A stretch of 64,000 nucleotides of DNA. Source: Verrucomicrobiia bacterium. GTDB taxonomy: Bacteria > Verrucomicrobiota > Verrucomicrobiia > JADLBR01 > JAIBCM01. Each line of letters opens with the position of its first letter. The first letter of the stretch is position 1. The translations under genes and the position numbers were made by a program. Below are positions 37,388 to 49,055 of the stretch, piece by piece. The notes under the pieces are model-generated. The model had not been told where the DNA came from, searched no databases, and was given only the letters and a program-made list of their open reading frames with translations. The stretch is from positions 34,541 through 98,540 of the forward strand of contig JAIBCM010000005.1 in assembly GCA_019694135.1 (NCBI GenBank). Reading direction: 5' to 3'.

Positions 37388-38905
37388 TTAAGGAACCAGA
37401 ACCGGTTGAGACGCTGGCGTCCTAATCGATTCTGCTATTTGAGGATTTTCCATAAGTGGATGATGAATGACCTGAAGTTGCGCTGGACTCTTGGATGCAT
37501 CAAATTCTATAGAAGCATCCGGTGTTTTATCTCCAGAAGCAATTTCTAAAATATGAAATGTTAAAGCCGATGCGGCATTTTTATCGTTAGTATCTGAAAC
37601 AAAAAAACCATTGCCAGCATTTTTGGGAAAATCGTTTCCCTTCGTTGTAAAATATTTTTCATGATTTCCTGCCCCCATAATCATGGTAATACCCTTAGGA
37701 TTAGAAAACTGTTTTCGAGCATGGATTGCTAAAGTTTCTGGGTTAGCAAACTCCAGATCGCCTGTCTTATCAATTAATTTTGTGACAACTCTAACTTCAA
37801 TACCTGCAGCAGCCGAATCTTCTTTAAGAACCGCTATTTGAGCTTTAGCCGCCTCTAAGTTTGCTTTTTCATTACCGTCTTTATAAATAACGATATCAAT
37901 TTCAACTACTCCTCGTGAAGAAACTTTGCCCATTGAAACTCTTTCCATACTACCACTAATTGTTGGGTAGGTAATTTGAAGCTCGCTTCCTGGAAAAGCC
38001 TTAATCTGATCACTGACAACGCGATTTGCGGTTGTATCTTTTAACGCGTTGAAAATTAAAGGCTCTGAGCGAAATGTTGCTGGATTTTTCCCATCTTCCA
38101 CACGACGAAATTCGATTTCAACCACATCCATAGGCTCATGAGTCACGGGATCATAGCTCGTTAGGAAATGCTTGCGTATTTTTACGTTATCTGGCCAATT
38201 TTCTTCCGTAAACTGAATATAAAAAGCTCTTTCAGATTGCGTGACTTCCATAGATAAATCTGAAGGAAAAGAAATATAGGTTAATTCTTTAGCACTGCCC
38301 CATTTTTTTATCGGAAAATGTTCATGAATAAACGGATTTTTAAGAGGATGAAGAGGTTGGCCATCTTGATTATAAACTTTGTTTCGATCCCAAAAATCGT
38401 AAATATAATCGCCTTTGGCTTCATAAATTTCTCCATCGGCAGTGATAAGTCCCGTAGTGGAATCAGTTTCTACTTTTTTAGGGTTTAATTTTTTATCTTT
38501 TGGGTTAATATAATAAAATTGTTCGCCTATTTTTATAATATCTTTTTGTGCAACAATTAAATAACCTTGCTTGTCATAGTAATTACCTTTTTCATCCTTC
38601 GTAAAACCTTTTTCCTCAATAACATATTTCATCTGACCCAAAGCTATTCTTCTGCGAATTTCATCTGGCATAATTCGTTGTTCGGGATCATAATTTACAA
38701 AATATGCATCTTTATATTGTCCATCGACATAGGCAACGTAACGTTCTATGCCTGGTTCAAAAGTAGGACTAGTGACTTGTAAATTTGAAATTTGCCTAAA
38801 ATTTTTATCAACAAACTGGTATCGAGAATTTTGAGAAGAAATTTGTCCAAAGGCCCTAGTCGCATGTTGAGCTTTATTTTTTGGATCGTCTTTTTCTTTA
38901 GTCAT
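37388..38905 (-). CDS. Orphan protein (about 505 aa; start MTKEK at 38905, track start 38923)
   Basis: Long ORF, no signal peptide; Tyr/Gly/Asp-rich N-terminal half. Confidence 0.7.
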   Translation of the reverse strand: MTKEKDDPKNKAQHATRAFGQISSQNSRYQFVDKNFRQISNLQVTSPTFEPGIERYVAYVDGQYKDAYFVNYDPEQRIMPDEIRRRIALGQMKYVIEEKGFTKDEKGNYYDKQGYLIVAQKDIIKIGEQFYYINPKDKKLNPKKVETDSTTGLITADGEIYEAKGDYIYDFWDRNKVYNQDGQPLHPLKNPFIHEHFPIKKWGSAKELTYISFPSDLSMEVTQSERAFYIQFTEENWPDNVKIRKHFLTSYDPVTHEPMDVVEIEFRRVEDGKNPATFRSEPLIFNALKDTTANRVVSDQIKAFPGSELQITYPTISGSMERVSMGKVSSRGVVEIDIVIYKDGNEKANLEAAKAQIAVLKEDSAAAGIEVRVVTKLIDKTGDLEFANPETLAIHARKQFSNPKGITMIMGAGNHEKYFTTKGNDFPKNAGNGFFVSDTNDKNAASALTFHILEIASGDKTPDASIEFDASKSPAQLQVIHHPLMENPQIAESIRTPASQPVLVP

Positions 38906-39014
38906 AATTTTAAAATAAAACACAAGTTCTTAAAATTGCAATTTATTATGTTTTATTAATAATTTTTATATTATGGGTAATAAATCTTTATTCAATATAT
39001 TGACGAACCAAAGA

Positions 39015-39956
39015 TTAATGAACAGTTGGCACAACATTAGGCTGAGCGGGTGATTGCTGATTGCTAGGTGATGCCGCTTTATCCCAAATAATGTCCATGC
39101 GTGTTCGTCCCCCCATCTCATTTTTAATATCTACTAATAGATGATTATGACCTAATTTAATATTATCTAAATTTTGATCGGGTTTTGGGAAAACACAACT
39201 TATTTTGGAAGTTTTATCTGTTTCTTGCACGACACATTCAGGTTTAGTTATCTTTGCTGGTGAAGGAGGCGTATTCGATGTAGTTGGCAAAGCAGCCTTT
39301 TCCCAAATCAATGTCATGTCGTTTTTTTGGCCATTGCTTCTGGCTTCAACTTTCATTCCAGGAATATTTAAATCCCAATTACCTAAATTTAGTGCTTCAG
39401 AATTTTTTGGGTCTATATCATTTCCAACCATCGCTGTAACTTTTCCATTTCCATTTTCAGTTTTTATAACCTCCCATTTTCCAAGACGTTCTTCGGTAGT
39501 TGCTGGTTCTAGTGATGTGGTTTCAGTTTTCTCTGGAGTGTCGGGCTCCTCAGCGTTATCAGGCTCTTCAGTATCATGATCTGAAGAAGCGTTTAATGCT
39601 TCTCGAGCCTCTTGCTGCTCTCTCTCGAGAATGGCGCGTTCCTCAGGAGTAAGCTCTATAAGTTTTTTTGTTTCGTCATCCAACTCTATGAGAGATGGAG
39701 ATGGTCCCAAAGGTTGAATATTTTGACCTGGTAAGGTAACCATAGGTTGAGCAGGCATTGGTGAGGGCATTAAGGGCGAAATTTGATCCAACGAATTTTG
39801 AATATCCGACACATCTGAATCAACAGCTTTAGAGTTGGCGAGATCAGGCTCAACGGGATTTTCAATTTCCACATTTTCAGCCAGTTCATCTTCGGCTATT
39901 GATTCATCTGGCTCAATAATATCAATCGATTGCTCGCTCTGTTGCTCTTCTCCCAT
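39015..39956 (-). CDS. Orphan protein with acidic disordered N-half and an internally duplicated beta domain
   Basis: Repeat units end in MTLIWEKAALP and MDIIWDKAASP. Confidence 0.7.
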   Translation of the reverse strand: MGEEQQSEQSIDIIEPDESIAEDELAENVEIENPVEPDLANSKAVDSDVSDIQNSLDQISPLMPSPMPAQPMVTLPGQNIQPLGPSPSLIELDDETKKLIELTPEERAILEREQQEAREALNASSDHDTEEPDNAEEPDTPEKTETTSLEPATTEERLGKWEVIKTENGNGKVTAMVGNDIDPKNSEALNLGNWDLNIPGMKVEARSNGQKNDMTLIWEKAALPTTSNTPPSPAKITKPECVVQETDKTSKISCVFPKPDQNLDNIKLGHNHLLVDIKNEMGGRTRMDIIWDKAASPSNQQSPAQPNVVPTVH

Positions 39957-39976: not shown

Positions 39977-40444
39977 TTAAAAACTGCCCGAAATCTTAAT
40001 TCCTGCTTGTTGTAAATGTCCTTCTTTAAATTGGCCAGACACACTGATTTGCGGATCAACTTGGCCCCAATTAAACTTTCCTCTCACACCCAATTCTTTA
40101 ATCTCAGGTTTACCGTGATTCAAGCCCGGCTTAATGATAGGCTCAATTTCTGCATCTTTTCCTACTTTAAAAGATAATGGATTTTTAAATTTATTTTGTT
40201 GGGAAGTTTGAAATGCGTCCGAAATTCCTTTCATGTTATTCACAGCATTGGCTTGGAGGGGATTATCAGGCTGCGGTTGCATAAAAGCTTGTCGAAATTC
40301 GGCTTCTGTAGTTGGCACACCAGGCTTCGGTCCAGAAGATCCATTAAGAATTTCTGCAATGGACTTTTCAAACGGACTATTATCTTTGGGATGATAAGTT
40401 AAATCTAACCCTTGAGCGCCTGACTGCTGTTTTTCTTCTTCCAT
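39977..40444 (-). CDS. Orphan protein, paralog of 40448-40918
   Basis: Shares FKNPLSF.VG....EPI.KP.L..GKP.IKELGV.GKF.WGQ; ends ISGSF. Confidence 0.72.
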   Translation of the reverse strand: MEEEKQQSGAQGLDLTYHPKDNSPFEKSIAEILNGSSGPKPGVPTTEAEFRQAFMQPQPDNPLQANAVNNMKGISDAFQTSQQNKFKNPLSFKVGKDAEIEPIIKPGLNHGKPEIKELGVRGKFNWGQVDPQISVSGQFKEGHLQQAGIKISGSF

Positions 40445-40447
40445 AAA

Positions 40448-40918
40448 TTAAAATCCTCCTGAAACTGTGACGCTAGCTTTTTGGAATTCACTATTTTTGA
40501 ATTCGCCTTTAGCTTCAATTTGCCCCCAATCAAATTTTCCCTTTACACCTAATTCTTTGATTCCGGGCTTACCTCCAGTAAGTTCAGGTTTAACGATAGG
40601 CTCTACCTTAACACCATCACCCACTTCGAATGACAAAGGATTTTTAAATTCAGATTTAGGAGGAGTCTGATCTTTTCCATCCTTTAACCTTTTATCCCAA
40701 TAGTCATAGCTCTCAAAAGGTAAACGCCCCTTAAAGGCTTCGTCAATTCCTTGACGTCGCAGTTGCTCATTAGAAGGCAAATTAGGATTTAAATCCTGCG
40801 TAAGCTTAAATTTTTGCTCAAAAAAAGTTAAATCTTGATTCGTTTTTTCTTTAAATTGATCGGCAACTCCGAAAGAAAACGCAGATTCTTGTTTTTGATT
40901 TTGCTCATTTTCTTCCAT
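40448..40918 (-). CDS. Orphan protein, paralog of 39977-40444
   Basis: Same conserved C-terminal block; ends VSGGF. Confidence 0.72.
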   Translation of the reverse strand: MEENEQNQKQESAFSFGVADQFKEKTNQDLTFFEQKFKLTQDLNPNLPSNEQLRRQGIDEAFKGRLPFESYDYWDKRLKDGKDQTPPKSEFKNPLSFEVGDGVKVEPIVKPELTGGKPGIKELGVKGKFDWGQIEAKGEFKNSEFQKASVTVSGGF

Positions 40919-40975: not shown

Positions 40976-41725
40976 TTAATGGTCAGAAATGCGCATTTCG
41001 CTAAACGAAACCGTCAAATCATCAATAGCCAATCCGTGATCGTTGATGCCCTCATCATCACGATCGAACCAACGAATCCAAAAGCTTTCACCTGGCGGAA
41101 TTTTAAGGTTTTGGATTTGATAGTAAACGCTCACTTGATTAGCAGGATCGTTACCATCGATTGACCCACCTTTAACGGATTGCGGACCCGTAAAACCTAG
41201 GTAATCATAACCATAAGACCATCCCATATTTTCGGTATCGGCTGTAAAGTCTTCACTGCCAACCCGATAATAACATTGAAGAAAAGTTTTTTGCGTGTCG
41301 TTATCGCGCCATTGTTCGCCTGTGTAAGAAATGGTAACAGAAGTAATAGTTTTTGAAGTACGATTGATAAAATAAACACCAAAAAAATGCTCTTCTTGAT
41401 CACCCAAAACATTTCCCGCAATACTACCTAATGCTCGATCTGAAGAATCCCTTTTACCAAAATGGTAGGGAAAAGGTGTAGCCAACGATCCATCGGAAGC
41501 TGCAATAAAGCGCGGTGTTTTGGTTTTGGCACGATTTTCAGCCATTACATAATACCAACCCGGCAAAGTTTTGTTATTGATCCAAGGATTCACATCGCGA
41601 TTACCAAGACTATCAAAATTTTGGGTGTAAGGTTCGGCCAAATTCGTAATTAAAATCTGGGCATTCCCCCGAAAATAAAGTCCCATCCATGCGAGAAAAA
41701 AGAGTGCTTTGAAATAATGGCTCAT
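40976..41725 (-). CDS. Secreted YTQNFD...GEQWRD...IRW.D...IDD domain protein lacking the Lys-rich C-terminal domain
   Basis: Signal peptide; aligns by eye with the N-terminal domain of the four genes at 42289-47174. Confidence 0.8.
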   Translation of the reverse strand: MSHYFKALFFLAWMGLYFRGNAQILITNLAEPYTQNFDSLGNRDVNPWINNKTLPGWYYVMAENRAKTKTPRFIAASDGSLATPFPYHFGKRDSSDRALGSIAGNVLGDQEEHFFGVYFINRTSKTITSVTISYTGEQWRDNDTQKTFLQCYYRVGSEDFTADTENMGWSYGYDYLGFTGPQSVKGGSIDGNDPANQVSVYYQIQNLKIPPGESFWIRWFDRDDEGINDHGLAIDDLTVSFSEMRISDH

Positions 41726-41743: not shown

Positions 41744-42076
41744 TTAATCGGTTTTAATCTTGCCGCCCCAGGAAAGGATTTTAGCTTTGGCGCCTGCGGC
41801 TTCGGCTTCGGCAATTTGGTTGTTCCGAACATAGGCTAGGGAAAGGCTGGTCCAAAGAATTTGATCGTTAGGATTAAGTTCCGTAGCATTTTTGCCAGCT
41901 TGAATCGCTTCCTCATAACGCCCTAATTTCATAAGCGCCATACCCAGCGCATGCCAACCATCCACAAATTTCGGATCTTGATCGACGCATTGCTGATAAA
42001 GCTCCACCGCTTTTTCCAACTCGCCAATAGCCAGTTCACTGTTGGCAGCTTCAAAGAGTTCGTCAAGATTGGGCAT
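41744..42076 (-). CDS. Small TPR protein
   Basis: Two to three TPRs (GWHALGMAL.KLGRYEEAI, LWTSLSLAY). Confidence 0.8.
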   Translation of the reverse strand: MPNLDELFEAANSELAIGELEKAVELYQQCVDQDPKFVDGWHALGMALMKLGRYEEAIQAGKNATELNPNDQILWTSLSLAYVRNNQIAEAEAAGAKAKILSWGGKIKTD

Positions 42077-43540: not shown

Positions 43541-44659
43541 TTATTTCACCTTAACATCAGTGAATACGTTGGTAAAAATAACTTCATTATTATGTGCGCC
43601 ACCTGTTATTTTGACAAGCAACGTCACAGGACTAGCTCCCGAAGCAATACCAACACCAGCTTTTGTTGTCTTGGTGCTTTGGAAAATATTTTTAACATTC
43701 TTTTTCTTAGCCAACTTACCTTTGGCTGCCTTAAATTTACCCGCATCAATAAAGGTCAAGTTAGTCGGGCTGTTTGTCCCACCAAATGCCGCATACGATG
43801 CTTTGGTAACTGTGTTGCTTTCCGAAAAAATAAAACCTTTAACTTTAAAACCTTTTTGCCCTTTGAACTTCAACTTTTTACCCACTTTAGGCCTCTTAAG
43901 CTCAATCGTTACGCCACTCAAAGCAGGTTTGTTGAAAGTCACCGATACATCATCAATTCCCACACCTTGATTGGTAGTGAATAAATCATCTAAATCCGAC
44001 CAACGAATCCAAAAACTTTCTCCCGGAGGGATATTCAAGCCGCCAATCGAAGAGGTTAGCACAACACGATTAGCCGGATTATTACCATCCAGCGCGCCCG
44101 AGCCAAAGTTCTGTAATGTAGTAAAATCCAATGCATCTTGAGAAGTCCAACCCACATTACTAACATCAGCTATAAAATCGGTTCCCCCCACGCGATATAA
44201 AAATTGAAGCGTATGAGGAAATAGCGTGTTATCCTCCCACTGTTCTCCCGCATAGGAAATACTCACTTGATTTACCGCTTCACTGCTATTGTTAATGAAC
44301 TGAGCGCCGTAAAAATGCTCTAAAACCACAACACCGGCAAATAATCCAGAAATACTACCCATGGCACGATCTGACGAGTTAGCAGAACCAAAATTATAAG
44401 TAAATGCCGTTGGAGTCACTGACCCATCCGTAGCAAACAATTGAAAAGCTTCAATATTACCTCCACCATTAGTAGAAATTTGATAAAACCAACCCGTTAG
44501 GGTACTATTATTGGTCCAATTCACACTGTTAGTACCAAAACTGTCAAAATTTTGGGTATAGCTCTGGGGCAAATCACCGCTAATTGAAATTTGCGAATGT
44601 CCCAAATGAATAAAACTCAAAAAAGCTGCAGTAGAAAGAATTTGTGTTATTTTTTTCAT
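43541..44659 (-). CDS. Secreted surface-protein paralog 2
   Basis: Same architecture; CTD ends DVKVK. Confidence 0.85.
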   Translation of the reverse strand: MKKITQILSTAAFLSFIHLGHSQISISGDLPQSYTQNFDSFGTNSVNWTNNSTLTGWFYQISTNGGGNIEAFQLFATDGSVTPTAFTYNFGSANSSDRAMGSISGLFAGVVVLEHFYGAQFINNSSEAVNQVSISYAGEQWEDNTLFPHTLQFLYRVGGTDFIADVSNVGWTSQDALDFTTLQNFGSGALDGNNPANRVVLTSSIGGLNIPPGESFWIRWSDLDDLFTTNQGVGIDDVSVTFNKPALSGVTIELKRPKVGKKLKFKGQKGFKVKGFIFSESNTVTKASYAAFGGTNSPTNLTFIDAGKFKAAKGKLAKKKNVKNIFQSTKTTKAGVGIASGASPVTLLVKITGGAHNNEVIFTNVFTDVKVK

Positions 44660-44784: not shown

Positions 44785-45921
44785 TTATTTTATCTTAACA
44801 TCACTAAATGTATTAGTGAAAGTCACTTCACTAGCATCATTACTACCACCAAAAACTCTCACTAACAACGTCACTGGCGATTCAGTCACCCCTACACCAG
44901 GTTTTGTTGTTTTTGTGCTCTGAATAATGGCTTTAACTCCTTTTTTCTTAAACAGTTTGCCTTTAGTCAAAATCTTAAATTTACCCGCATTGATAAAGGT
45001 CAAGTTGGTCGGACTATTGGTCCCTCCAAATGCCGCATACGATGCTTTAGTAACTGCATTACTTTCAGAAAAAACAAAGGCTTTCAATTTGAAACCTTTG
45101 CTGCTCTTGAATTTTAATTTCTTGCCCACCTTCGGTTTCTTCAACTCAATGCTTACTCCACCCAATACGGGTGCCGGATTAATACCATTGAAGGTAATAT
45201 TCACATCGTCAATCGCCAAATGATCCCCTACACCAGCATCAAAAAGGTCCGCCCAACGAATCCAAAATGTTTCACCGGGAGCAATATTTAATGAAATATT
45301 AGCATTAAGCGCCGTACGATTACCGGGAGCATTACCATCTACAGTAACATTCATCCCTGCATTATTAGGGCTGGTAAAATCAAGCGCGGGGAAAGCCGTC
45401 CATCCTATATTATTCGTATCACCCAAAAAATCACTTCCTCCAAGACGATAGAAAAAATTAATGACATGAGGCGTAGCATTATTATCTCGCCACTGTTCGC
45501 CATTGTAACTTACATTAACATTAGTAATAGTTCCTAACGAGTTATTAACAAACCTAGCACCATAAAAAAATTCATTTGTAATTTGATCCAAGATGAAAAA
45601 CCCAGGTCGCGATCCCAAAGCCCTATCTGCATCGGCGGTTGTTCCCAAATTAAGAGCCGCAGGCGTAAAAAGAAATGGAAAAGTTCCATCGGATTCCACC
45701 AATTGAGAGACTACTCCAGCATCAAGGCCGTTCGTACTACGAACATACGACCATCCTGCAATAGTAGATTCATTCGCCCAAGGAACTGTATTCGTTCCCA
45801 AGCTATCAAAATCTTGAGTGTAATTTTGCGGCAAACTGCCCGTGATTGAAATTTGTGATTGTCCTAAGTGCGCAAAGCCAACCAAGCTTGCAACACAAAG
45901 AAATTGTGTGATTTTTTTCAT
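44785..45921 (-). CDS. Secreted surface-protein paralog 3
   Basis: Same architecture; SD AAGGAG; CTD ends DVKIK. Confidence 0.85.
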   Translation of the reverse strand: MKKITQFLCVASLVGFAHLGQSQISITGSLPQNYTQDFDSLGTNTVPWANESTIAGWSYVRSTNGLDAGVVSQLVESDGTFPFLFTPAALNLGTTADADRALGSRPGFFILDQITNEFFYGARFVNNSLGTITNVNVSYNGEQWRDNNATPHVINFFYRLGGSDFLGDTNNIGWTAFPALDFTSPNNAGMNVTVDGNAPGNRTALNANISLNIAPGETFWIRWADLFDAGVGDHLAIDDVNITFNGINPAPVLGGVSIELKKPKVGKKLKFKSSKGFKLKAFVFSESNAVTKASYAAFGGTNSPTNLTFINAGKFKILTKGKLFKKKGVKAIIQSTKTTKPGVGVTESPVTLLVRVFGGSNDASEVTFTNTFSDVKIK

Positions 45922-46481
45922 AATTCAATTTCTCCTTTAATTTCTTTTTATTACTCCATCGAGTTAAACAATTAAACAAAAAAATGCAACAACTATAATA
46001 ATAAAAGAGCCGATCCATGGATCGGCTCTTGAAATTTTTAGAAGTAAATCTTTAACTACTTTATCTTAACATCACTAAATGTATTAGTGAAAGTCACTTC
46101 ACTAGCATCATTACTACCACCAAAAACTCTCACTAACAACGTCACTGGCGATTCAGTCACCCCTACACCAGGTTTTGTTGTTTTTGTGCTCTGAATAATG
46201 GCTTTAACTCCTTTTTTCTTAAACAGTTTGCCTTTAGTCAAAATCTTAAATTTACCCGCATTGATAAAGGTCAAGTTGGTCGGACTATTGGTCCCTCCAA
46301 ATGCCGCATACGATGCTTTAGTAACTGCATTACTTTCAGAAAAAACAAAGGCTTTCAATTTGAAACCTTTGCTGCTCTTGAATTTTAATTTCTTGCCCAC
46401 CTTCGGTTTCTTCAACTCAATGCTTACTCCACCCAATACGGGTGCCGGATTAATACCATTGAAGGTAATATTCACATCGTC
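44789..46481. repeat. 422-bp direct repeat (44789-45210 = 46060-46481, offset 1271)
   Basis: Compared line by line with no mismatch seen; encodes the CTD and linker of paralogs 3 and 4. Confidence 0.88.
46005..46030 (-). terminator. 26-bp palindromic terminator after array gene 46056
   Basis: AAGAGCCGATCCATGGATCGGCTCTT. Confidence 0.65.
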
Positions 46482-47174
46482 GATGCCTAAGAAATGATCA
46501 GCATTTACTGTATTAAATAAGTCTGCCCATCGAATCCAAAATTCCTGACCCGGGGCAACGTTAACATTGACTGAACCATTAACAGGTGTTTGATTAGCAG
46601 GCAGATTACCATCTAAAACTCCTGCCGCTGCATTCTGAGGACTAGTAAAATCAAGCGCTGGTGTTGCGGTCCATCCTATATTACTAGGATCGCCTAGGAA
46701 ATCAGACCCTCCCACACGATAAAAAAAACTAATAGTTTGCGGATTGGCGTCTGCATCTCTCCATTGTTCTCCCACATAGGAGATAGAAACATTAGTAATA
46801 GTTCCTGCAGTATTGTTAATAAAGCGTGCGCCATAAAATAATTCATTAGTATTAGCAACAGCTAAAGCTCGCGAACCTAGGGCACGATCAAGATCAGCTG
46901 AGCTACCAAAGTTAAAACCAAGCGAAAAAATTGCGTTCCCATCAGAGGCCAGAAGACTAGGCACTGTTCCTGCATTGGTTGAATTAGCCGAAATGACATA
47001 TAGCCAACCAAGAATAGTGGAATTATCCGTCCAAGTAACATTGTTCGTTCCCAAGCTATCAAAATCTTGAGTGTAATTTTGCGGCAAACTGCCTGTAATT
47101 GAAATTTGTGATTGTCCTAAGTGAGCAAAACCTACCAGGCTTGCAACACAAAGAAATTGTGTAATTTTTTTCAT
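46056..47174 (-). CDS. Secreted surface-protein paralog 4 (start MKKITQ at 47174; the track start at 47246 is an extension)
   Basis: SD AAGGAG before 47174; the first 44 aa are identical to paralog 3. Confidence 0.85.
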   Translation of the reverse strand: MKKITQFLCVASLVGFAHLGQSQISITGSLPQNYTQDFDSLGTNNVTWTDNSTILGWLYVISANSTNAGTVPSLLASDGNAIFSLGFNFGSSADLDRALGSRALAVANTNELFYGARFINNTAGTITNVSISYVGEQWRDADANPQTISFFYRVGGSDFLGDPSNIGWTATPALDFTSPQNAAAGVLDGNLPANQTPVNGSVNVNVAPGQEFWIRWADLFNTVNADHFLGIDDVNITFNGINPAPVLGGVSIELKKPKVGKKLKFKSSKGFKLKAFVFSESNAVTKASYAAFGGTNSPTNLTFINAGKFKILTKGKLFKKKGVKAIIQSTKTTKPGVGVTESPVTLLVRVFGGSNDASEVTFTNTFSDVKIK

Positions 47175-47252
47175 AAAAACTAATTCTCCTTTTTTTCTTA
47201 TTAATTTTGAAGTTGATTTTTTTAGAAAGTAAAAAAAACTTTGCAAGTCAAA

Positions 47253-49055
47253 TCAATTAATTCGCCCAAATTTTTTCTCTAATTCGTTATGATTCAACAA
47301 AATAAGCGTCGGCCGACCGTGAGGACAAGTATAAGGTAAATCGCAAGCCAACAAATCTTCAATCAACCGATCCACTTCCTCATTGCGAATTTTGTCATTG
47401 GCTTTAATCGCTTTTCGACAAACCGCGCGAACGATGACTTCTTCACTGAAATGACGTTTTGCCTTCGTTTCATTGCCTTGGATTTGCAGCTCATCCAAAA
47501 TATCCTGAGTCAAAGAGGCAATTTTTTCGTGAGGAAAAAAAGGAGGCACAGCTTCAATAATAAAACTATTTTTACCAAACTCCTGAATCACTAACCCTGC
47601 TTTTTCCAAAAAATCTCGGATCGATTTCAAAAAAGCAGTTTGCGAAGGTGAAAGTTCTAATGAAATAGGAACTAACAACCGCTGGCTTACCGCCACACCG
47701 GCGATTTTCTGTTTCAGCACTCGTTCGAATAGAACCCGCTCGTGAGCCGCATGTTGATCAATAATCACCAACCCTTGCTCCGATTCAGCAATAATATAAA
47801 GCCTCTGAACAATACCCAAAAGCCGCAATCTCAAAGGCCCATAATTTTCGTAACCCTTACTTTGCGTCTGAGGTTGAACCCGCGACAAAGGTAAAGGCAG
47901 ATCCAAAGGCATCACCTCGGGTTGAGGCAAAGGACTTGGCACAACAATATGATTATTATTAAAAGACTGTTCAACTGCTTGGGAAAAAGCATAACCCTTA
48001 TCAACAACAGGAGCCAATGGGGCAGGCACTCCATTACTCAAAGAAACCGTTAAAGGCGCAGGTTGAGGGGCTTGAAGCGCGTTTCGAATAGCAGCCACTA
48101 AAAATTGGCGAATCTGAAAATCTTCGCGAAACCGAATCTCACGTTTAGCAGGATGCACATTCACATCGACCGTTTCCGCAGGAACTTTCAAAAAAAGAAC
48201 CGCAATAGGGTGTCGCCCTTTCATCAAAGCATTTTGATAGCCCTCGCGAATCGCATAATACAACGTGCGACTCTCCACAGGACGCGCATTCACAAACCAA
48301 TACTCATCCGTTTTCGCACTGCGACTCACACCCGCTCGCCCAATCCAACCCTCTAAACACAAACCATGCTCCTGCGCCTTCACCAGCACTAACTGTTTCA
48401 CCCATTCGCCCCCCAACACATCCTCCAAACGCCGCTCTCCCGAAGAAGTCGCAGGCAATTGATAAAGCGTTTTGTTATCGACTCGATAAGTCCATCCCAC
48501 ACCAGGATGCGCCAAAGCATAAGTTCGAAACAACTGCTCCAAATGTCCCGCCTCCGTTTCCACCGAACGCAAAAACTTTCGGCGACCGGGCACATTAAAA
48601 AAAAGATTTTTTACTTCGATCTGCGTCCCAACAGGCACGCCAACCTCCTTCACCGTCTCAATTTTTCCACCAGCAATAAAAACCTCTGTGCCGCCAGCCG
48701 CGCCCGTTTCTGCTGTGCGCAACCGAAACCTCGAAATCGAAGCAATACTCGGAATCGCCTCACCTCGAAAACCCAAAGTATGAATCGCTTGAATATCTTG
48801 CGTGGTTCGCACCTTGCTCGTAGCGTGCCGCTCCAGACAAAGCAATGCATCATGACGATCCATTCCTTGACCATCATCCGTCACACGAACAAGTTGACGC
48901 CCACCAACTTCCACTTCGATATCAATTTTTTTTGCGCCCGCATCAATACTATTTTCAATCAACTCTTTTAAAACCGACGCAGGCCGCTCAATCACTTCCC
49001 CCGCAGCAATCTGATTCGCCACTAATTCATCGAGAAGCTGAATGCGATTAGGCAT
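47253..49055 (-). CDS. mutL: DNA mismatch repair endonuclease MutL
   Basis: NQIAAGEVIERP, ELIENSIDAG, GFRGEA, DQHAAHER, ACDLPYTCPHGRP. Confidence 0.97.
   Translation of the reverse strand: MPNRIQLLDELVANQIAAGEVIERPASVLKELIENSIDAGAKKIDIEVEVGGRQLVRVTDDGQGMDRHDALLCLERHATSKVRTTQDIQAIHTLGFRGEAIPSIASISRFRLRTAETGAAGGTEVFIAGGKIETVKEVGVPVGTQIEVKNLFFNVPGRRKFLRSVETEAGHLEQLFRTYALAHPGVGWTYRVDNKTLYQLPATSSGERRLEDVLGGEWVKQLVLVKAQEHGLCLEGWIGRAGVSRSAKTDEYWFVNARPVESRTLYYAIREGYQNALMKGRHPIAVLFLKVPAETVDVNVHPAKREIRFREDFQIRQFLVAAIRNALQAPQPAPLTVSLSNGVPAPLAPVVDKGYAFSQAVEQSFNNNHIVVPSPLPQPEVMPLDLPLPLSRVQPQTQSKGYENYGPLRLRLLGIVQRLYIIAESEQGLVIIDQHAAHERVLFERVLKQKIAGVAVSQRLLVPISLELSPSQTAFLKSIRDFLEKAGLVIQEFGKNSFIIEAVPPFFPHEKIASLTQDILDELQIQGNETKAKRHFSEEVIVRAVCRKAIKANDKIRNEEVDRLIEDLLACDLPYTCPHGRPTLILLNHNELEKKFGRIN

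Follow-up and report, generated by a model that had tools for sequence, protein, structure and literature searches.

Constant ends around a swapped variable middle are a familiar route by which bacteria come to vary their exported proteins. In the emm-like cluster of Streptococcus pyogenes (mrp-emm-enn), tandem paralogs keep the signal peptide and the C-terminal wall-anchor region conserved on either side of a hypervariable part, and recombination of neighbours and of strains gives rise to chimeras and to changes in copy number. Variable segments are exchanged by gene conversion via conserved flanks in the pilE/pilS genes of Neisseria, vlsE of Borrelia and msp2 of Anaplasma, which are systems of one expression site and silent, incomplete donor cassettes. 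The babA/babB and homA/homB genes of Helicobacter pylori are built of three segments; the middle one shows allelic diversity, and the 3' one undergoes concerted evolution in each strain through gene conversion inside the genome (PMC2795765, citing Pride and Blaser 2002). The array described here follows the same route in an undescribed protein family.

The window (the whole stretch of 64,000 nucleotides that was analysed) carries five tandem paralogs on the minus strand, p0 to p4, immediately downstream of parB-mutL (Table 1). The full-length paralogs consist of a signal peptide, an acidic jelly-roll domain (the N-domain) and a very basic Ig-like C-terminal domain (the C-domain). All four full-length copies have a ribosome-binding site, an ATG and a signal peptide, and an own terminator hairpin was detected 3' of each of p2, p3 and p4. 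The ATG of p4 is preceded by the ribosome-binding site AAAGGAGAA; the mechanical ORF extends to a TTG at 47246. The array is part of an island of ~10 kb between an EamA transporter gene and mutL, and ordinary housekeeping genes flank this island on both sides. Scans of all paralogs and their island neighbours against Pfam and NCBIfam gave no match, save for one TPR protein.

Table 1. Features of the paralog array in the window.
Feature	Position	Strand	Comparison
Paralog 0 (p0), 249 aa: signal peptide and jelly-roll domain, without C-domain	40976..41725	-	
Paralog 1 (p1) CDS, 374 aa, full length; core type recurs in distant relative P0019	42289..43413	-	
Paralog 2 (p2) CDS, 372 aa, full length	43541..44659	-	
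Terminator hairpin after p3; homologous to that of p4 but diverged, different loop	44734..44759	-	
Paralog 3 (p3) CDS, 378 aa: signal peptide, jelly-roll domain, C-domain; contains repeat copy A	44785..45921	-	
Repeat copy A, 3' end of p3	44789..45210	-	exact 422-nt match to 46060-46481
p3 variable core, codons 45-237	45211..45789	-	63% nt identity to p4 core
p3 conserved 5' segment, signal peptide and first strand, codons 1-44	45790..45921	-	same residues as p4
Terminator hairpin after p4	46005..46030	-	alignment of units
Paralog 4 (p4) CDS, 372 aa; ATG at 47174 (MKKITQ); contains repeat copy B	46056..47174	-	
Repeat copy B, same segment of p4	46060..46481	-	exact 422-nt match to 44789-45210
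p4 variable core	46482..47042	-	comparison with p3
p4 conserved 5' segment	47043..47174	-	same residues as p3

An earlier note on this DNA had described a perfect 422-bp repeat over the C-terminal part of p3 and p4, running from the IDD motif to just before the final Lys codon and the stops, and the description is accurate. The two copies lie on the minus strand at the 3' ends of two of the five tandem paralogs and match exactly over 422 nt (0 mismatches, offset 1271), with the adjoining base differing at either end; no further copies were found elsewhere in the 64-kb window. Read in the direction of the genes, the tract opens with the first Asp codon of IDD, the Ile codons before it being ATT and ATC, and closes one base short of the end of the last Lys codon, which is AAA in one gene and AAG in the other; the stops that follow are TAA and TAG. 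With the domain limits taken from an AlphaFold model, it encodes the last jelly-roll beta-strand (from the DD of IDD), the linker and the whole of the basic Ig-like C-domain. p3 and p4 differ at 218 of 1113 aligned sites, and their longest run of identity, 422 nt, compares with a maximum of 64 in 10,000 shuffles. Even if the tract had diverged as little as the conserved 5' segment, ~26 differences should have been present over its 422 nt (P ~8e-12), and a chance origin of the identity is excluded.

Divergence between p3 and p4 was determined for each segment by the Nei-Gojobori method. The 5' segment (the first 44-45 codons) has a dS of 0.38 and a dN of 0.014, the core a dS of ~1.5 (pS 0.65-0.66) and a dN of 0.35, and the last 139 codons a dS of 0.011 and a dN of 0, the final Lys codon being the sole difference. 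Synonymous divergence is thus far from equal over the gene. The first 44 amino acids are identical, as had been claimed, but the synonymous differences among them, put at about seven, number eight (codons 4, 13, 14, 15, 17, 26, 27 and 44). The cores differ in length as well as in sequence, again as the earlier note had it, with three indels and 60% amino acid identity. Alignment of the whole units showed that the upstream regions, terminators and intergenic regions of p3 and p4 are recognisably homologous but far diverged, and that they differ by indels and in the loops of the hairpins. As the sequence that flanks the tract is homologous but diverged, the duplication is old and the perfect block probably a later overwrite. 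The C-domain of p2 has 72% nt identity to those of p3 and p4 and lies outside the recent tract.

The nearest genome is the MAG ABC2.39 (locus L001), against which the housekeeping genes have a dS of 0.18-0.45. The 95% upper bound for the dS of the tract is 0.03, which would make the conversion event much younger than the split from L001. The C-domains of p3 and p4 are 99.8-100% identical to each other, whereas the tract has 84.7% identity to its L001 counterpart, against a genome background of ~90-95%. Paralogs within the genome are therefore closer than counterparts between genomes, the synonymous sites are homogenised, the tract is bounded on both sides by diverged homologous sequence and the trees of the segments are incongruent, all of which is the pattern of concerted evolution. 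In the neighbour-joining trees the C-domains and the 5' ends group by genome or lineage, and the cores group by type, across genomes.

The mosaic of dS values and the diverged homologous flanks support the recent gene conversion between p3 and p4 that had been proposed. We put at about 0.8 the probability that the 422-bp repeat is a recent intragenomic gene-conversion tract between adjacent tandem paralogs of an old duplication, an event which is read from the pattern of divergence. The mechanism would be non-reciprocal homologous recombination between p3 and p4, presumably RecA-dependent. The converted tract would be the whole block in which enough homology is left between the two genes, that is, the end of the jelly-roll, the linker and the entire C-domain; that it covers the whole block still able to pair fits either repeated conversion or one event limited by flanking heterology. 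The design would be constant-variable-constant, with the Sec signal peptide and first strand, the jelly-roll core and the lysine-rich Ig-like C-domain as its three parts. The constant ends would undergo concerted evolution within the genome and may also provide homology arms that let the array gain or lose units and let strains and lineages trade core cassettes.

The perfection of the 422-nt identity may owe something to consensus polishing, and the alternative that survives best, although we consider it improbable, is that of an assembly or polishing artefact, in which the C-domain segments in the cell are in fact similar without being identical, or the tandem order was mis-joined from strain variants, and the consensus made the copies identical. 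The contig was evidently assembled from a metagenome, all of the nearest relatives likewise come from MAGs or metagenomic contigs, and an exact repeat of 422 bp is longer than a short read. Moreover, no independent assembly of the strain was found by exact-protein look-up of p3, and metagenome scans with two probes, the p4-p3 terminator and a 35-mer from the repeat, gave no match. Against this, the units differ in the core, the 5' synonymous sites, the upstream region and the terminator loop, and so are not a duplicated piece of contig, and the same tandem architecture and site occur in independent assemblies of four relatives. As polishing could homogenise only copies which were near-identical already, recent conversion would still be implied; consensus homogenisation would soften the word "perfect" without altering the conclusion of gene conversion.

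Less probable still is that the repeat is what remains of a tandem duplication of recent date, in which p3 and p4 were lately identical units and imported DNA then replaced all but the C-domain segment. Replacement of cores by imported cassettes does occur in this family, and copy number is variable among the relatives, but this history requires at least two separate replacements; one over the upstream region, 5' end and core, and a second that begins at exactly the stop codon and extends over the terminator and an intergenic region which is homologous, much diverged and has indels. It is simpler to suppose one conversion patch, or several rounds of conversion confined to the only sufficiently homologous block, and the graded similarity of the C-domains in the relatives is as expected if conversion recurs and its effects then decay. 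A third possibility, that both segments are kept identical by selection at the nucleotide level, as for an antisense gene or RNA element, is very improbable: both tracts contain plus-strand ORFs of 98-99 aa (44927-45223 and 46198-46497), but such ORFs are expected opposite lysine-rich coding sequence, comparison of the C-domain with p2 and the relatives shows purifying selection in the sense frame (pN 0.05-0.18, pS 0.5-0.65), and, since synonymous sites are free to change, selection cannot account for zero changes in ~93 of them. Similar ORFs lie opposite p1 and p2, and the antisense ORFs in the repeat copies are probably not genes.

The array is located downstream of mutL in every relative fetched. 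The genes that follow mutL are L1_a, a frameshifted p2 ortholog and a p1 ortholog in L001; P0008 and P0007 in L002 / L003; P0006 and P0009 in L004 / L005; P0005 and P0016 in L006 / L007; and P0002 and P0019 in L054 / L055. Where two assemblies of an array from different samples exist, which was so for four relatives, they agree at 99.9-100%. Across the Verrucomicrobiia loci compared there are two, three or four full-length copies at the same site, and this gives indirect support to the gain and loss of units which, according to the earlier note, such a repeat would allow. Within the arrays of L002 and L004 the C-domains have 89.6% and 81.6% identity respectively, compared to 68% in their cores, which looks like older homogenisation that is now decaying.

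Further family members were observed in the related genomes. The p2 ortholog of L001 (11274-12384) is divided into three reading-frame fragments of 158, 71 and 131 aa, yet retains 90-96% nt identity; it is a genuine pseudogene, or else the assembly contains an indel error. The related MAG also has members of the family at sites away from mutL, a single gene among housekeeping genes (L009, 8001-9113) and a tandem pair of which the second copy is truncated inside the C-domain (L010, 7848-10080).

The earlier note had also suggested cassette-like swapping of the core. This is not demonstrable from the window alone, but is shown directly in the relatives. Between the window and L001 the housekeeping genes, p1 and p2 have 90-96% identity, whereas the core of the MutL-proximal gene has only 62-70%. 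Likewise, L054 and L006 have a background of 90-95%, against which both array genes fall to 50-70% in the core, with their 5' ends and C-domains at background. The clearest case is P0019. Its upstream region, its first ~85 nt and the sequence from nt ~715 onward match P0016, its positional counterpart (dS 0.17 and 0.45 for the two flanks; genome background 0.36-0.39), while nt 90-712 have ~90% identity to the p1 type of the window, with a dS of 0.31-0.37. In mutL and parB the P0019 genome and the window are saturated (dS ~2), and the C-domain of P0019 is likewise saturated at synonymous sites against that of p1. The breakpoints lie at the conserved motifs PQxYxQNFD and IDDV; the 3' one is the point at which the p3/p4 tract starts, and the 5' one is a few codons before codon 44, where the conserved 5' segment of p3 and p4 ends. 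P0002 shows the same flank/core/flank pattern when compared with P0005. On sequence grounds, P0019 is a clean flank/core/flank mosaic that demonstrates cassette replacement in the relatives.

Within a core type selection is purifying (dN/dS ~0.15-0.2), so the diversity of the cores consists of distinct conserved types, without hypermutation. The first gene of L001 was considered as the product of a simple crossover between p4 and p3 and this was rejected; its 5' end leans slightly towards p4 and its core towards p3, yet the core has no more than 68% identity to that of p3. Differential loss or replacement of cassettes fits this gene better.

The AlphaFold model, built with 35 family members (mean pLDDT 88), predicts a signal-peptide helix at residues 2-22, a jelly-roll beta-sandwich at 24-247 and a second beta-sandwich at 256-378. 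The mature N-domain is acidic (pI 4.1). Foldseek matched it to the Epf adhesin domain of Streptococcus, the ligand-binding domains of Eph receptors, the cleaved-adhesin domains of gingipains and the sugar-binding Fbs, with E-values of 1e-5 to 1e-3, but with TM scores of 0.2-0.5 and ~10% identity. The modelled jelly-roll thus resembles adhesin and ligand-binding domains at the level of the fold only, and the core is predicted to be a jelly-roll of the ligand-binding type. The C-domain is ~125 aa long and very lysine-rich, with a pI of 10.4 and 24 Lys/Arg in 131 residues, and ends in a beta-strand, ...FTNTFSDVKIK. Modelled alone it gave an Ig-like sandwich (pLDDT 90) with generic structural matches only; taken over both domains, the generic matches have TM scores of 0.3-0.5. 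The proteins are probably exported beyond the inner membrane.

A sequence search of the PDB with the profile of the whole protein gave no significant relative (best E = 0.5), and one with the C-domain profile gave no matches. No description of the protein family was found in the literature. The process is of a known kind, comparable to that of the Helicobacter bab and hom genes, in a protein family which is undescribed and unannotated in the libraries and literature searched. All full-length relatives come from MAGs and metagenome contigs of Verrucomicrobiia, of which several derive from wastewater. On its own the N-domain has a wide distribution in other phyla, where a PEP-CTERM tail or a T9SS C-terminal domain comes after it, or where it is joined to nuclease, Calx-beta and other extracellular modules. 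The C-domain is rare; an exhaustive HMMER profile search detected 26 clusters among 1.84 billion representatives, and the match was located at or near the protein C-terminus in all 26. Most of these clusters share the architecture of the paralogs, and the few other passengers include FG-GAP repeats and LTD-like plus repeat domains. A word-indexed homology search with the C-domain alone gave no matches, which is a limit of the index, as the exhaustive search did find the family.

In its position the C-domain resembles the T9SS C-terminal domain and the PEP-CTERM signal. It is found at the extreme C-terminus of unrelated passengers, including the FG-GAP and LTD-like proteins, it is predicted to be a beta-sandwich with an Ig-like fold, as would be expected of a terminal sorting domain on diverse cargo, and after the N-domain it takes the place that is held elsewhere by PEP-CTERM or T9SS tails. 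It differs from both in its greater length and in being so rich in lysine. Sequence homology to the T9SS C-terminal domain (PF18962 / TIGR04183) was rejected, as there was no Pfam or NCBIfam match and hhalign against the T9SS tails of N-domain homologs gave a probability of 0.1%. It was also rejected as a PEP-CTERM signal, since there was no match to PF07589 and the sequence ends in a beta-strand. As the C-domain also terminates other exported proteins, it is probably a common envelope-anchoring or sorting module. Two other large exported proteins, in related genomes, an FG-GAP-type protein of 602 aa (L002, 2321-4129) and a beta-propeller-like protein of 748 aa (L009, 11652-13898, minus strand), have lysine-rich tails ending in ...K[IV]VGPK, which may be another common C-terminal tag of the clade.

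A bolder proposal, which is tentative and which we would sooner expect to fail than to hold, is that the C-domain is an unrecognised, clade-specific module for envelope sorting or anchoring in these Verrucomicrobiia, whose cargo all fits one partner, and that the array next to mutL is a hot spot at which lineages trade jelly-roll cassettes of the ligand-binding type, with selection that is frequency-dependent, for example through phage, through grazers or through substrate specificity. One partner for all of the C-domain cargo, if true, would explain why the C-domain is uniform within a genome.

Several other features of the island and its border were observed. A small TPR protein gene lies between p1 and p0 (41744-42076, minus strand; L001 counterpart 13850-14182) and has a dN of 0.04 and a saturated dS of 1.44 between the window and L001, compared to a dS of 0.21 for the neighbouring p1. 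The dS of p0 (40976-41725) against L001 is also raised, at 0.82, and this suggests a separate import of divergent DNA over the TPR gene and p0. Two adjacent small paralogous genes of 155 and 156 aa (39977-40444 and 40448-40918, minus strand) have neither a signal peptide nor a Pfam or NCBIfam match; the second has 42-60% nt identity to its L001 counterpart against a background of 90%, and is another hypervariable spot of the island. The clade-specific island beside the array is completed by the genes of a 313-aa acidic proline-rich protein (39015-39956, minus strand), the N-terminal half of which is highly variable against L001 (34-46% nt identity), and of a 511-aa protein (37388-38923, minus strand); no Pfam or NCBIfam match was obtained for either, nor any PDB relative for the 511-aa protein. 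In mutL, the linker (47860-48240) has ~50-75% identity to L001 and the remainder of the gene >90%, in keeping with the fast evolution that is usual in the disordered linker of MutL.

The array is a clean and dated case of modular evolution in an uncultured lineage, in which the constant ends are homogenised within the genome and a domain predicted to be of the binding type moves between lineages as a cassette. It also brings to light two domain families that are outside the current libraries; a widespread jelly-roll domain, found in other phyla alongside PEP-CTERM, T9SS and nuclease modules, and a basic C-terminal domain of rare occurrence, perhaps a new tag for envelope targeting. Metagenome assemblies are at their most fragile at loci of this type, which is also where variation between strains is concentrated.

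When compared with the known systems, the array shares with pilE/pilS, vlsE and msp2 the swapping of variable segments through conserved flanking sequence. A system of one expression site and silent cassettes was nevertheless rejected, as every one of the four full-length copies is a complete gene. The target of a diversity-generating retroelement, in which a template and a variable repeat differ at adenine positions only, was also rejected from the repeats; the only ones are the paralogs themselves, and the differences between the cores cover all bases and include indels. Like the emm-like cluster, the array consists of tandem paralogs with conserved ends around a variable part, but the emm-like proteins are coiled-coil proteins of a Gram-positive pathogen with an LPXTG sortase anchor, whereas the variable part here is predicted to be a globular jelly-roll. 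The closest described behaviour is that of babA/babB and homA/homB of Helicobacter. The bab and hom genes are at dispersed loci, their constant 3' part is a beta-barrel membrane anchor and their proteins have no sequence similarity to those of the array, in which tandem copies share a soluble basic Ig-like domain as their constant part and the host belongs to an uncultured environmental or wastewater lineage of Verrucomicrobiia; in both, however, the paralogs of one genome are closer to each other in the 3' segment than orthologs are between genomes.
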